Notes: a model not told the origin generated them from the letters alone. Shown: positions 55,350-60,130, counted from the first letter of the stretch. The stretch is DNA of 64,000 nucleotides from Rhodoferax sp. OV413 (GCF_945881795.1 NZ_CAMCVG010000001.1:7488-71487), one strand, 5' to 3'. Program-made: numbers and translations.

Positions 55350-56810
55350 ATGATTTCTCGTGAACCCACCATCGAACGCCTGGCCACGGCCAAGTCCCTG
55401 CTGCTCACCCCCTTCGGGCTGGATGAGAGTCACCTCATCCGCGCGCTGGGTGAAATCAAGGCCCACCAGGTCGACGAGGCGGACCTCTACTTCCAATACA
55501 CCCGCTCAGAGGGCTGGAGTCTGGAAGAGGGCATCGTCAAGACCGGTTCCTTCAGCATCGACCAGGGCGTGGGCGTGCGTGCGGTCAGCGGTGAAAAAAC
55601 GGCGTTTGCGTATTCGGACGACATTTCCGACGCATCGCTCCTGGACGCGGCCCGCACAGTGCGCACTATTTCGGCTGCAGCGCAGACCCGGCGTGCGAAG
55701 ACTGCTACACATAAGATAGCAGGTGGGCGCAAGCTCTACGCCGGGCTGGACCCGATTGCCACCCTGGACAGCACCGCCAAGGTCGCGCTCCTAGGCCGGG
55801 TGGAGAAGCTGGCCCGAGCGAAAGACCCGCGCGTGATTCAGGTGATGGCCGGACTGGCCGCTGAATACGACGTGGTGCTGGTTGCCCGCGCCGATGGCAC
55901 GCTGGCCGCCGACGTGCGCCCCCTGGTGCGCCTGAGTGTGACCGTGATTGCAGAGCAAAAAGGCCGCCGCGAGGCAGGCTCTAGCGGCGGCGGCGGGCGT
56001 TTCGGGCTGGCCTATTTCACCGACGAACAGGTGGAAGACTATGTGAACCAGGCGGTGCATGCCGCGCTCACCAACCTCGACTCCCGCCCCGCTCCTGCGG
56101 GCGAAATGACGGTGGTGCTGGGTGCCGGCTGGCCGGGCATTTTGTTGCACGAGGCCATTGGCCACGGCTTGGAGGGCGACTTCAACCGCAAGGGCAGCAG
56201 CGCTTTCAGCGGGCGTGTGGGCCAGCGGGTGGCGGCCAAGGGCGTCACCGTGCTCGACGACGGCACGATTGCCGACCGCCGCGGCTCGCTCAACGTGGAC
56301 GACGAGGGCAACCCCAGCCAGCGCAATGTGCTGATTGAGGACGGCATTTTGAAGGGCTACATCCAGGACAGCATGAACGCCCGGTTGATGGGCGTGAAGC
56401 CCACCGGCAACGGCCGCCGCGAGAGCTATGCCCACCTGCCCATGCCGCGCATGACCAACACCTACATGCTCGGCGGCGACAAGGCGCCCGAGGAAATCAT
56501 TGCCAGCATCAAGAAGGGCCTCTATGCGCCCAACTTCGGCGGCGGTCAGGTGGATATCACCAGCGGAAAGTTCGTGTTCAGCGCCAGCGAAGCCTATTGG
56601 GTGGAAAACGGCAAGATTCAATACCCGGTCAAGGGCGCCACTCTGGTGGGCAGCGGGCCGGAGTGCTTGAAGCGTGTCTCGATGATCGGCAACGACATGA
56701 AGCTCGACCCCGGCGTGGGCACCTGCGGCAAAGAGGGCCAGAGCGTGCCGGTGGGTGTGGGCCAGCCCACCCTGCGCGTCGACGGACTCACCGTGGGCGG
56801 CACGGCCTGA
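55350..56810 (+). CDS. tldD: Metalloprotease TldD
   Basis: 486 aa with the [11 protein letters not shown] zinc motif; C-terminal [14 protein letters not shown]. Confidence 0.9.
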
Positions 56811-56844
56811 GCCGGCCGCGCGAACCTGTGCTACATTGAAGCCC

Positions 56845-56913
56845 ATGCATTCAGCACACTTCTTTTTTAGCTATTTTTGGTTCTCACGCGCAACCGGCGG
56901 TCGAGAGATCTGA
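56845..56913 (+). CDS. Aromatic-rich leader peptide (22 aa) of the DAHP synthase attenuator
   Basis: ATG CAT TCA GCA CAC TTC TTT TTT AGC TAT TTT TGG TTC ... TGA translates to MHSAHFFFSYFWFSRATGGREI. Seven of eight consecutive codons are Phe/Tyr/Trp. It lies directly upstream of a terminator and of a DAHP synthase gene. Confidence 0.55.
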   Translation: MHSAHFFFSYFWFSRATGGREI

Positions 56914-56944
56914 ACGTACCTACAGAAAACGTCCTGAATCTTCC

Positions 56945-56976
56945 AAAAACCGCCGGCAACCCCGGCGGTTTTTTTA
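56945..56976 (+). terminator. Rho-independent terminator (attenuator) in the DAHP synthase leader
   Basis: AAAAACCGCCGG-CAACC-CCGGCGGTTTTTTT. 8-bp GC stem (56949-56956 / 56962-56969), extendable by A-T pairs, followed by a T7 run. It lies 45 nt before the aro gene ATG. Confidence 0.75.
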
Positions 56977-57019
56977 TTGTTGCTTTCACTTCTTTTAACT
57001 TGAACTCTGGAGACCTGAC

Positions 57020-58147
57020 ATGACCGCACAAGCCTCTGCAAGCGACGCCTGGTATGGCCAAGCGCAGCCCGCCGACCGCACCAGCAAGACCGATGACGAA
57101 CGCATCAAGGACATTACCGTGCTGCCACCTCCAGAACATTTGATCCGCTTCTTCCCCATCCGCGGAACCGCGGTGGAAACACTGATCTCCGAGACCCGCA
57201 GCACCATCCAAAACATCATGTCCGGCAAGGACGACCGGCTGCTGCTGATCATCGGTCCCTGTTCCATCCACGATCCGGCCGCCGCGCTGGAGTACGCCCG
57301 CCGCCTGAAGGCGCAGCGCGAAAAGTACAAAGATACGCTGGAAATCGTGATGCGCGTCTACTTCGAAAAGCCCCGCACCACCGTAGGCTGGAAGGGCCTG
57401 ATCAACGACCCCTACCTCGATGAGAGCTACCGCATCGACGAGGGCCTGCGCATCGCGCGCCAGCTGCTGATTGAGATCAACCGCCTGGGAATGCCCGCGG
57501 GCAGCGAGTTTCTGGACGTGATTTCGCCCCAATACCTCGGCGACCTGATTTCCTGGGGCGCCATCGGCGCGCGTACCACCGAGAGCCAGGTGCACCGCGA
57601 GTTGGCCTCGGGCATTTCCGCGCCCATCGGATTCAAGAACGGGACCGACGGCAACATCAAAATCGCGACCGACGCGATTCAGGCGGCAGCCGGCGGGCAC
57701 CACTTCTTGTCGGTGCACAAGAACGGCCAGGTCGCCATCGTCCAGACCCACGGCAACCCCGACTGCCACGTGATTTTGCGCGGCGGCAAGGCGCCGAACT
57801 ACGACGCCGCCAGCGTAGCCGCCGCCTGCGCCGACCTGGCCCGGGCCAATCTGCCGCCAACCCTGATGGTGGACTGCAGCCATGCCAACAGCAGCAAGCA
57901 GCACGAAAAGCAGCTGGATGTTGCCAAGGACATTGCCTCCCAGATCAGCGGCGGCTCCAGAAGCGTGTTCGGTGTGATGGTGGAGAGCCACCTCAACGCC
58001 GGCGCGCAGAAGTTCACCCCAGGCAAGGACGACGCCTCCGCGCTGGAATACGGCAAAAGCATCACCGACGCTTGCCTGGGCTGGGATGACTCGCTCGCCT
58101 CCTTGGAGGTGTTGTCCGCGGCCGTCAAGGCGCGTCGCGCAGCGTAA
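57020..58147 (+). CDS. 3-deoxy-7-phosphoheptulonate (DAHP) synthase, class I (AroF/G/H type)
   Basis: 375 aa, collinear with E. coli AroG (DDRLLLIIGPCSIHD, EIVMRVYFEKPRTTVGWKGLINDP, WGAIGARTTESQVHRELASG, GFKNGTDG, SHANSSKQ). RBS GGAGA. Confidence 0.9.
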   Translation: MTAQASASDAWYGQAQPADRTSKTDDERIKDITVLPPPEHLIRFFPIRGTAVETLISETRSTIQNIMSGKDDRLLLIIGPCSIHDPAAALEYARRLKAQREKYKDTLEIVMRVYFEKPRTTVGWKGLINDPYLDESYRIDEGLRIARQLLIEINRLGMPAGSEFLDVISPQYLGDLISWGAIGARTTESQVHRELASGISAPIGFKNGTDGNIKIATDAIQAAAGGHHFLSVHKNGQVAIVQTHGNPDCHVILRGGKAPNYDAASVAAACADLARANLPPTLMVDCSHANSSKQHEKQLDVAKDIASQISGGSRSVFGVMVESHLNAGAQKFTPGKDDASALEYGKSITDACLGWDDSLASLEVLSAAVKARRAA

Positions 58148-58195
58148 AGCGATTCGGCACGGGCTGCGCGCCAAGCGCCAGCCTGCCTCAGACCG

Positions 58196-58220
58196 GCGGG
58201 CCTTCGGGCCCGCTTTTTTT
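58196..58220 (+). terminator. Rho-independent terminator after the DAHP synthase gene
   Basis: GCGGGCC-TTCG-GGCCCGC followed by TTTTTTT. Confidence 0.7.
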
Positions 58221-58223
58221 GCC

Positions 58224-58499
58224 TTATTGCAGCGCGGGGGGCGCCCGCAGCGACTCCATCACCGCGTCCGGCGTGCCGCCGCCGGCCAGGTGGGTTTTGT
58301 ACCAGACGCTCAGGATGGTGCTGATCACCGGGCCCGGGTTCTCGCAGACCTTGGCCACGTCCCACTGGTTGAGCTTGCAGATGCACTCCACCAGGTCCAT
58401 GTCCATGTCGATGGCCTCGTTGTCGCAGCGGCGCAGCTGCAGGTCGGCAAATTGCGCGCCTTCGGGCAGGCGCAGCTGAAAGTTCGGGTCGCTTTGCAT
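58224..58499 (-). CDS. Small conserved-looking hypothetical protein
   Basis: ORF of 91-96 aa (MQSDPNFQLRLPEG...) with four Cys. No recognisable motif. It is convergent with the aro gene. Confidence 0.4.
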   Translation of the reverse strand: MQSDPNFQLRLPEGAQFADLQLRRCDNEAIDMDMDLVECICKLNQWDVAKVCENPGPVISTILSVWYKTHLAGGGTPDAVMESLRAPPALQ

Positions 58500-58550
58500 A
58501 GGTTTGCAGGTCAAAAGTGCTGTTTTCGCCCGTGGTTATTGCGCGAACAG

Positions 58551-59987
58551 CTACGAAGTTTGTAGCAGCCGGCTGAGCCTGGCGTGGATGCCGCCAAAGC
58601 CGCCATTGCTCATACACAGCACATGGTCACCCGGCTGCAGCGCCGCGGCCACCTGGCCCAGCACCACTTCAATGCTCTCGCCCACCTGCGCGCGGGCGCC
58701 CATGGGTGACAGCGCCTCGGCCGCGTCCCAGCCCAGCCCGCCGCTGTGGCAAAAGGCCAGGTCGGCTTCTTCCAGGCTCCACGGCAGCTGGCTTTTCATG
58801 GCGCCGAGTTTCATGGTGTTGGATCGCGGCTCGAACACCGCCAGGATCCGCCCGTCTGCCACTTGGCGGCGCAGGCCGTTGACGGTGGTGCGGATGGCGG
58901 TGGGGTGATGGGCGAAGTCGTCGTAAATCGTCACCGGCGCGCTGCCGGGTTGCGATGCCAGCGGCGCGCGGGCGCGCACTTCCATGCGGCGCTTCACATT
59001 GACAAACCGGCCCAAAGCCTCAGCCGCCAGCGCGGGCGACACGCCCACATGCTGCGCCGCGGCAATGGCGGCCAGCGCGTTGAGCTGGTTGTGCATACCG
59101 TTCAGCCCCCACTGCACGCGCGCCACTTCCCGGCCCTGGTGCAGCACCGCAAAGTCGTGCGGTTCGCCCACCGCCGAAAAATCGCTTACCGCGGTGCCAA
59201 AGCTTTGCTGCTCACTCCAGCAGCCCATGTGCAGCACCCGGGTGAGGCTTTCCTCCAGCCCGTTGACCACCACACGCCCGCCGGCCGGGACCGTGCGCAC
59301 CAGATGGTGAAACTGCCGCTCAATCGCCGCCAGGTCATCAAAAATGTCCGCGTGGTCGAACTCGAGGTTGTTCAGGATGGCGGTGCGAGGGCGGTAGTGG
59401 ACGAACTTGCTGCGCTTGTCGAAGAAGGCGGTGTCGTATTCGTCGGCTTCAATGACAAAGAGGGGTCGGGGGGGAAAAGCAGGGGGCGCAGCCTCTGCGC
59501 CACTCCTATCGCTGCCAAGCCTTGCCGAAATGCCAAAGTTCAGCGGGACGCCGCCCACCAGAAATCCCGGCTGTAAACCCGCGTAGTCCAGCACCCAGGC
59601 CAGCATGCTGGTGGTGGTGGTTTTGCCGTGGGTACCTGCAACCGCCAACACATGGCGACCTTGCAAAACGTGTTCGGCCAGCCACTGCGGCCCGCTGGTG
59701 TAGGGCGCGCCGGCGTCCAGAATCGCCTCCATCAGCGGAAATTTGGGGCTGCCGTCGGGCAGGCGCGCGCGACTCACCACGTTGCCGATGACAAACATAT
59801 CGGGCTGGAGCGCCATTTGGTCGGCGCCAAATCCCTCCACCAAATCGATTCCGAGGGCGCGTAGCTGGTCGCTCATCGGGGGGTAAACGCCCGCGTCGCA
59901 GCCGGTGACTTGGTGGCCTGCTTCGCGCGCCAAAGCGGCCAAGCCGCCCATGAAAGTCCCGCAAATGCCCAGAATGTGAATATGCAT
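58551..59987 (-). CDS. mpl: UDP-N-acetylmuramate:L-alanyl-gamma-D-glutamyl-meso-diaminopimelate ligase
   Basis: Start at [30 protein letters not shown]-loop. Mur-ligase architecture with a typical Mpl N-terminus. Confidence 0.85.
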   Translation of the reverse strand: MHIHILGICGTFMGGLAALAREAGHQVTGCDAGVYPPMSDQLRALGIDLVEGFGADQMALQPDMFVIGNVVSRARLPDGSPKFPLMEAILDAGAPYTSGPQWLAEHVLQGRHVLAVAGTHGKTTTTSMLAWVLDYAGLQPGFLVGGVPLNFGISARLGSDRSGAEAAPPAFPPRPLFVIEADEYDTAFFDKRSKFVHYRPRTAILNNLEFDHADIFDDLAAIERQFHHLVRTVPAGGRVVVNGLEESLTRVLHMGCWSEQQSFGTAVSDFSAVGEPHDFAVLHQGREVARVQWGLNGMHNQLNALAAIAAAQHVGVSPALAAEALGRFVNVKRRMEVRARAPLASQPGSAPVTIYDDFAHHPTAIRTTVNGLRRQVADGRILAVFEPRSNTMKLGAMKSQLPWSLEEADLAFCHSGGLGWDAAEALSPMGARAQVGESIEVVLGQVAAALQPGDHVLCMSNGGFGGIHARLSRLLQTS

Positions 59988-60130
59988 GCCGGCTATTCTA
60001 CGGGCCACTGCAGCCGGTTTTTTGGGCATGATTTCAGCACTTTGCCCTCGTGGAATATGCGTGAGTCGCTATGAAAAGCAGAGCATCCCCAGGCACCGGC
60101 TGCGCCGTATGCCGCAGGCACAATGCAGCC

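Follow-up and report, generated by a model that had tools for sequence, protein, structure and literature searches.

The interval between tldD and the gene for a class I-alpha DAHP synthase in Rhodoferax sp. OV413 very probably carries a ribosome-mediated (leader-peptide) transcription attenuator which would control the DAHP synthase gene. We assign this reading, which is drawn from sequence comparison and folding, a probability of about 0.88. All structural elements of such a switch are present in the window, by which we mean the whole stretch of 64,000 nucleotides that was analysed. They are conserved together with DAHP synthase independently of tldD, as would be expected if the attenuator proposed in a preliminary description of this DNA is correct. 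The analysis shows the elements themselves and how far they are conserved, that they go exclusively with DAHP synthase, that the RNA has mutually exclusive pairings open to it, and that the geometry links these pairings to the position of a ribosome.

The leader reading frame and its alternative folds

The features of the locus are collected in Table 1. The 22-codon reading frame lies between tldD and the DAHP synthase gene exactly as first described, from the ATG at 56845 to the TGA, and the run FFFSYFWF at codons 6-13 can be read directly from the sequence. Seven or more aromatic residues in eight codons occur only once in the six frames of the 64 kb, against an expectation of 0.003 from triplet frequencies, and the GC content of the run is 25% as opposed to 64% for the whole window. 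The leader ORF with its aromatic run is not due to chance. A second aromatic cluster (six of eight codons, minus strand, placed near 33.8 kb) was rejected as noise, since its frame is non-coding and faces a long ORF on the plus strand. In the interval from tldD to the leader, a terminator scan found no further terminator. The best solved relative of the DAHP synthase is the Phe-sensitive AroG of E. coli, and its nearest named relatives, at 94% identity, are from Rhodoferax species. Its score falls just below the AroG equivalog cut-off, and its feedback specificity was therefore left unassigned.

Table 1. Coordinates of the proposed attenuator, its neighbouring genes and the corresponding elements of a divergent clade (window positions unless a locus is named)
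Feature	Position	Strand	Details
tldD, upstream neighbour	55350-56810	+	NF008006, 689 bits; outside the element
Probable extended -10 promoter element	56829-56837	+	TG-c-TACATT (TGCTACATT), 7 nt upstream of leader ATG; motif alignment
Leader ORF	56845-56913	+	22 codons plus TGA (56911-56913): MHSAHFFFSYFWFSRATGGREI
Aromatic codon run FFFSYFWF	56860-56883	+	codons 6-13; 5 Phe, 1 Tyr, 1 Trp; proposed ribosome stall sites
Segment 1 core UUCUC, 5' arm of predicted P1	56881-56885	+	part of long imperfect hairpin 56864-56926
Segment 2, antiterminator strand	56894-56910	+	CCGGCGGU 56894-56901 plus GAGAGAUC 56903-56910
Small inner hairpin within antiterminator	56914-56932	+	ACGU 56914-17 with ACGU 56929-32; ribosome-masked folds of window
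Segment 3	56936-56956	+	G-AUCUU (56936, 56938-42) plus ACCGCCGG (56949-56956)
Intrinsic terminator	56945-56975	+	AAAAACCGCCGG - CAACC - CCGGCGGUUUUU, then UU
Shine-Dalgarno GGAG of DAHP synthase	57007-57010	+	
Class I-alpha DAHP synthase (AroFGH family), putatively regulated gene	57020-58147	+	TIGR00034, 532 bits
Mur-ligase-family gene, convergent	58551-60029	-	
Divergent-clade elements	L071:2276-2400; L204:507-632; L205:488-610; L208:523-644		

The core of the terminator comprises a 5' arm (ACCGCCGG, 56949-56956), the loop CAACC (56957-56961) and a 3' arm (CCGGCGGT, 56962-56969), followed by a run of seven T (56969-56975), the first of which is paired. Arms, loop and T run agree with the terminator originally placed at 56949-56976, save that it ends at 56975. 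When the flanking A and T tracts are included, a scan tool reports a stem of 12 pairs (56945-56973); the folding energy is -19.0 kcal/mol. The A tract 5' of the hairpin gives it a bidirectional appearance. Among 75 aligned sequences the stem is invariant, and RNAalifold recovered from them this invariant terminator only, with zero covariation.

A copy of the terminator 3' arm CCGGCGGT is found at 56894-56901, within leader codons 17-19, and direct reading thus confirmed the repeat which had been reported inside the end of the ORF. In the window, this copy pairs with 56949-56956 to form the core of an antiterminator, so that ACCGCCGG in segment 3 has two possible partners, segment 2 and segment 4. 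As the antiterminator employs the 5' arm of the terminator, the two structures are mutually exclusive, and at total energies of -19.9 (antiterminator) and -19.0 kcal/mol (terminator) they are about isoenergetic. Folding the region for alternative structures, a check suggested at the outset, yielded both. The modelled folds indicate that the antiterminator as first drawn is too short, adding to it the small inner hairpin and a second helix of GAGAUC with G-AUCUU (56905-56910 with 56936 and 56938-56942). In its general form, this helix joins GAGAG(G) to a CCUC or UCUC that lies 5-10 nt upstream of the terminator arm. Its complementarity amounts to -6.65 kcal/mol, compared to -5.0 +/- 0.23 kcal/mol for shuffles, and native pairs perform slightly better than cross pairs (p = 0.014), which constitutes weak covariation.

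Transcripts of 74 sequences, truncated at the terminator loop, were folded with and without a 31-nt ribosome mask over the aromatic codons. With the mask representing a stalled ribosome, the GGCGG:CCGCC antiterminator was part of the minimum-energy fold in 69/74 truncated transcripts. It also formed without the mask in 33/74, the window included, so that thermodynamics by itself does not settle which structure an untranslated transcript would adopt. A ribosome placed at the stop codon blocked antiterminator formation in the fold of the window. The masked folds of the window accordingly display the geometry of an attenuator: a stalled ribosome frees segment 2, and one that has reached the stop covers it.

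In addition to the structures of the first reading, we predict a conserved hairpin of the 1:2 type, P1, which would sequester the antiterminator strand. The UUCUC of its 5' arm corresponds to the Phe-Ser codons after Trp, the GAGAG of its 3' arm (56903-56907) is also part of segment 2, and its small apical stem contains part of GGCGG. UUCUC:GAGAG is paired in 92.5% of alignment cells, and two of its pairs are changed on both sides. P1 occurs in the local minimum-energy fold of all sequences (74/74), yet its stability does not exceed that of shuffles (mean z = -1.0), and the antiterminator outcompeted it in 33/74 free folds.

In the course of events that we infer, transcription would start at, or a nucleotide or two from, the leader ATG, driven by the extended -10 promoter, and the 22-codon leader would be translated by a ribosome. 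Scarcity of Phe-tRNA (probably also of Tyr-tRNA and possibly of Trp-tRNA) would stall this ribosome in FFFSYFWF (56860-56883), where its position over UUCUC (56881-85) would preclude P1 and leave segment 2 (CCGGCGGU...GAGAUC, 56894-56910) free. Segment 2 would then pair with segment 3 (G-AUCUU...ACCGCCGG, 56936-56956) once the latter is transcribed, and, with the 5' arm of the terminator occupied, RNA polymerase would enter the DAHP synthase gene. If the aromatic tRNAs are charged, the ribosome would reach the stop at 56911 and cover segment 2; segment 3 would instead pair with 56962-56973, giving the terminator, and transcription would end in the U tract.

Conservation in genomes and metagenomes

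We regard conservation over about 200 independent loci as the decisive test of whether such an element is real. Comparison of upstream regions in relatives, likewise suggested at the outset, found leader ORF and hairpins conserved: the element lies upstream of the orthologous DAHP synthase in 76/79 assessable species genomes from the Comamonadaceae and allied Burkholderiales. The survey drew on 80 species-representative genome loci with a DAHP synthase ortholog at 75-94% identity, from which one locus (L029) was left out of the count as not assessable. The 76 comprise 74 loci of standard form, one with a variant form (L071) and one cut by a contig end which keeps the 3' half (L053). At the 74 standard loci (74/80), an ATG ORF of 16-28 codons lies 100-240 nt upstream of the DAHP synthase gene, its core reads (F/Y)(Y/F)F.(Y/F)FWFS, and each leader is followed by a hairpin of the form ACCGCCG(G)...(C)CGGCGGT with 5-10 T. 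Three loci (L016, L052, and L078) lack the element. At L052 and L078, the DAHP synthase gene directly follows tldD with no leader between them, and the absence looks like secondary loss.

Carriers were found in Rhodoferax, Acidovorax, Variovorax, Polaromonas, Comamonas, Limnohabitans, Hydrogenophaga, Ramlibacter, and Xylophilus, as well as in Ottowia, Simplicispira, Diaphorobacter, Aquabacterium, Roseateles, Rhizobacter, Ideonella, and one bin labelled Polynucleobacter. Among the genome loci, another Polynucleobacter and a Macromonas bin had no element upstream of the ortholog. Three outgroups were obtained by tblastn of large PLSDB replicons, and neither leader nor terminator was found at their loci: Cupriavidus sp. 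EM10 (L201, 77% identity), Burkholderia sp. RPE67 (L202), and Mycetohabitans (L203). The matches listed in a protein search for DAHP synthase were all at least 87% identical and are uninformative on the taxonomic boundary. Across these loci, only a single branch of the Burkholderiales carries the attenuator family.

The tldD gene is a frequent neighbour of the element in these genomes and was considered as its possible owner. At 15/80 genome loci, no tldD match was present in up to 2.5 kb of upstream DNA, two of these being cut contigs with almost none. The leader and the terminator are both kept in 13 of the 15, which assigns the element to DAHP synthase and not to tldD. The notion that the terminator is a property of tldD alone was rejected, as it is contradicted by the synteny data.

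Metagenome contigs were scanned using RNA features only (GGCGGNNGAGAG, gap, ACCGCCG, gap, CGGCGGTTTT), such that neither codons nor any gene were specified, and the scan returned at least 120 loci. Among the metagenome loci listed, a DAHP synthase ortholog follows the terminator by 32-131 nt in 117/117 testable cases. An aromatic-rich ATG ORF, a feature absent from the search pattern, lies upstream in 119/120 of those listed, and the sole locus without one is cut by a contig end. Within this set of listed loci, the switch is tied exclusively to DAHP synthase and to an aromatic leader. Over genomes and metagenomes together, the element is present in about 200 loci, from related bacteria of fresh water and soil, and leader ORF, ATG and frame are conserved in about 190.

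Separately, a DAHP synthase query of PLSDB matched 350 E. coli records. The plasmid records among the matches listed are mostly from E. coli, with others from Salmonella and Klebsiella, and measure 88-200 kb. Nearly all of those listed encode a shorter DAHP synthase homolog with approximately 47% identity to the window enzyme, unrelated to the attenuator.

Codons, peptide, and RNA under constraint

Alignment gaps between the ATG and the aromatic run are multiples of three, and the frame is kept through the run. Over 170 distinct sequences, aromatic codons make up 54-100% of the entries at each of eight successive codon positions; their first base is a near-invariant T, while the second and third toggle among Phe, Tyr, and Trp codons. 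Further downstream, the nucleotides of GGCGG and GAGAG hardly vary, if at all, in whichever frame they are read and wherever the stop lies. The frame of GGCGG is shifted in 13/170 sequences, and the position of the stop relative to GGCGG ranges from -2 to +30 over all 170, lying between +6 and +21 in 155/170. Several lineages place the stop codon within GGCGGATGAGAGG, one places it just before GCGG, and others read the GGCGG block in a shifted frame. We infer that the ORF is translated and that its 3' half is constrained as RNA. The last aromatic codon precedes GGCGG by 12 or 15 nt in 139/170 sequences.

Two alternatives bear on the nature of this ORF, and we consider both improbable to a similar degree. 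Firstly, it may encode a functional aromatic micro-peptide, either a small hydrophobic protein or a TnaC-like nascent arrest peptide which senses free aromatic amino acids within the ribosomal tunnel. The core (F/Y)(Y/F)F.(Y/F)FWFS is indeed quite well conserved as a peptide, and '..GGRE' follows it in many lineages. However, GGCGG and GAGAG are kept regardless of frame or stop, and 'GGRE' is therefore an RNA constraint; as a peptide motif it was rejected, the same nucleotides being conserved in another frame or after the stop. The product would also vary from 16 to 30 residues in length, its aromatic positions swap freely among F, Y, and W, in one clade just Phe and Leu are used, and no peptide family in NCBIfam or Pfam matched. 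The tight link to the terminator and antiterminator is, moreover, fully explained by codon sensing.

Secondly, the attenuator may depend on RNA alone or on a protein, in the manner of a riboswitch or of the TRAP and PyrR types, with a ligand or protein selecting the hairpin and the ORF remaining untranslated. No Shine-Dalgarno sequence precedes the ATG, and the conserved GGCGG and GAGAG blocks might, in principle, be a binding site. Against this, the spacing between the ATG and a conserved -10-like element is constant, the ATG-to-run indels occur in multiples of three, the first-position T is conserved where the second and third positions toggle among F, Y, and W codons, and the stop codon keeps close enough to segment 2 for a ribosome to reach it. 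No Rfam family matched either. A motif derived by aligning upstream regions, TGnTAnnnT, occurs in 175/180 distinct regions and ends 6-8 nt before the ATG in 170, rarely 9-10 nt; a Shine-Dalgarno-like sequence precedes the leader ATG in only 1/180. A sigma-70 scan requiring both hexamers found no promoter. Because TGnTAnnnT stands 6-8 nt before the ATG and no Shine-Dalgarno sequence is present, the leader mRNA is probably leaderless; most simply, the motif would be an extended -10 promoter and the transcript would begin with the ATG or right beside it. The ilvBNC attenuator of C. glutamicum is a described case of a leaderless leader peptide.

A third alternative, in which the hairpin is a terminator of tldD (or a bidirectional one) and the small ORF a chance reading of a T-rich spacer, is scarcely credible: tldD does end 135 nt upstream of the hairpin on the same strand with no intervening terminator, and the hairpin with its 5' A tract looks bidirectional and may well also stop tldD read-through, but 13 loci lacking an upstream tldD match keep leader and terminator, DAHP synthase follows the RNA motif at every testable metagenome locus listed, about 190 loci preserve an aromatic ORF together with its start codon and frame, and the number of such codon runs expected by chance in the window is 0.003.

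Alignment pair counts for the main clade gave no covariation in the terminator stem or the antiterminator core, neither of which ever varies. Such invariance is unusual for a terminator; it matches the expectation from a three-way constraint and is not itself covariation. A divergent clade, comprising L071 and loci reached through its closest protein relatives (L204, L205, and L208), provides the test. Its antiterminator strand reads (G)GGGCGGCU, its 5' arm AGCCGCC(C)C and its 3' arm GGGCGGU. At the loop-side position, the bases of antiterminator strand, 5' arm and 3' arm are C:G:C in the main clade and G:C:G in 3/4 members of the divergent clade. At the outer position, the divergent clade has G in place of A in the 5' arm, and its antiterminator strand carries C in 4/4 as compared to 9/118 in the main clade. 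The divergent clade thus shows a coherent three-way change at two flanking positions. The full-length minimum-energy fold of L071 includes a 9-bp antiterminator. The antiterminator pairing put forward in the preliminary description (56894-56901 with 56949-56956) is supported by complementarity, by nucleotide conservation independent of frame, by the ribosome-masked folds and by the triple change in this one divergent clade.

The codon content of the leaders bears on which amino acids may be sensed. On average, 159 distinct leaders contain 4.7 Phe, 1.6 Tyr, and 0.9 Trp codons; Tyr is present in 156/159 and Trp in 138/159. Leaders of the divergent clade, such as MKNFLQFGFFKNFL... and MLIFSLFGFFRSFL..., have Phe only among the aromatics (FGFF..F, with no Tyr in the run), which suggests a lineage-specific re-tuning of the sensed amino acid. 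The earlier proposal that Phe, Tyr, and Trp are sensed together holds only in part: Phe codons dominate, the Trp codon is mostly single, and one clade has Phe alone. Sensing of Phe is a safe prediction and sensing of Tyr a likely one. Sensing of Trp is uncertain because its single codon lies in a segment which is also under RNA constraint, and conservation of the Trp codon may partly reflect such RNA constraints. A more ambitious reading, to which we would give somewhat less than even odds, is that of a leaderless multi-input attenuator: the 70S ribosome would start at the first nucleotide, the charging of Phe-, Tyr-, and Trp-tRNA would be integrated to set the whole shikimate flux, and codon swaps between lineages (mixed F/Y/W in most, Phe only in one clade) would re-programme specificity on a frozen RNA switch, perhaps in keeping with the feedback specificity of the DAHP synthase in each lineage.

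Relation to known systems

A scan of the whole window at Rfam gathering thresholds found one tRNA only, and an E-value scan of 56700-57100 gave only weak, terminator-driven matches (sroD, STnc240, and Phe_leader). Phe_leader (RF01859) scored 22.1 bits (E = 0.21) against a gathering threshold of 55 bits, over a stretch (56921-56977) which is mainly terminator and lies downstream of the ORF; for Trp_leader there was no match in 56700-57100 at E-values up to 10. Four of the leader peptides were unmatched in NCBIfam and Pfam at E-values up to 10, eight exact leader peptides were absent from a collection of 15 billion proteins, and literature searches returned no description of such an attenuator for the Betaproteobacteria. 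We take the element to be real and to follow classical attenuator logic, and its sequence family is apparently undescribed in the libraries and literature searched. To the preliminary description, the analysis adds a longer antiterminator, a predicted sequestering hairpin, a probably leaderless start, exclusive linkage to DAHP synthase, and a clade of Phe-only leaders.

The design resembles that of the classical attenuators of E. coli. The pheL leader, which is modelled in Rfam as Phe_leader, contains Phe codons only and is led by a Shine-Dalgarno sequence, shares with the window element a Phe-rich leader, an intrinsic terminator and a place in aromatic biosynthesis, and its alternative 1:2, 2:3, and 3:4 pairings have predicted counterparts there. 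Its target pheA, however, serves the Phe-specific branch and not the entry to the common pathway. The trpL leader follows the same four-segment logic: segment 2 is masked once the ribosome has reached the stop codon and freed when it stalls at the regulatory codons, and antiterminator and terminator likewise share one strand. Unrelated in sequence, it differs in having just two Trp codons and a terminal branch of the pathway as its target, whereas the window element has a two-helix antiterminator and a probably leaderless leader.

Attenuation of DAHP synthase is not new in principle, the aroR-aroF system of C. glutamicum being an experimental precedent. There, the aroR leader peptide with its motif Phe-Tyr-Phe lies upstream of aroF, which encodes a DAHP synthase; transcription reportedly rises under Phe limitation, and Tyr supply reportedly has no effect (Mentz et al. 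2013, PMC4046766; Neshat et al. 2014, as summarised in PMC11802643). The two systems have in common a DAHP synthase target, a small leader peptide with Phe and Tyr codons, and, as proposed for the window, ribosome-mediated attenuation. They differ in phylum-level setting, Actinobacteria as opposed to Betaproteobacteria, and in the leader itself, which has Phe-Tyr-Phe in one case and a run of 7-8 codons, usually with Trp, in the other. We liken them by function and not by RNA sequence, and the origin of the window element is likely independent of aroR.

In Enterobacteria, TyrR and TrpR act on aroF, aroG, and aroH, and expression of DAHP synthase is similarly tuned to aromatic supply (PMC5343134). 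These are, however, DNA-binding repressors which respond to free amino acids, while the window element is proposed to read tRNA charging via translation. A comparative study of regulons in the Proteobacteria describes those of TyrR and TrpR for gammaproteobacterial lineages alone and makes no mention of an attenuator ahead of DAHP synthase genes (PMC5343134).

The proposed attenuator provides a concrete, testable mechanism for control of shikimate pathway entry in the Comamonadaceae and allied Burkholderiales. Its compactness as a natural sensor of aromatic aminoacyl-tRNA charging may be of use in strain engineering, and the mixed F/Y/W and Phe-only leaders would amount to a natural experiment in which codon content is re-tuned on a fixed RNA scaffold. 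As an attenuator family, it matched no model of Rfam, Pfam, or NCBIfam in these searches, and gene callers overlook it or place a probably spurious ORF across it on the other strand.

Some further observations concern the annotation of the surrounding region. The order tldD, DAHP synthase, and convergent Mur-ligase-family gene is kept in distant relatives (window 55350-60029; L204-L208). A minus-strand ORF of 96 aa (58224-58514) lies between the DAHP synthase and Mur-ligase-family genes of the window. Opposite the attenuator, the minus strand of the window contains an ORF of 56 aa (56871-57041), and a public gene call of 54 aa occupies the corresponding strand in L208 (517-681). Both of these ORFs, which run across the attenuator, are probably spurious and hide the element in annotations.
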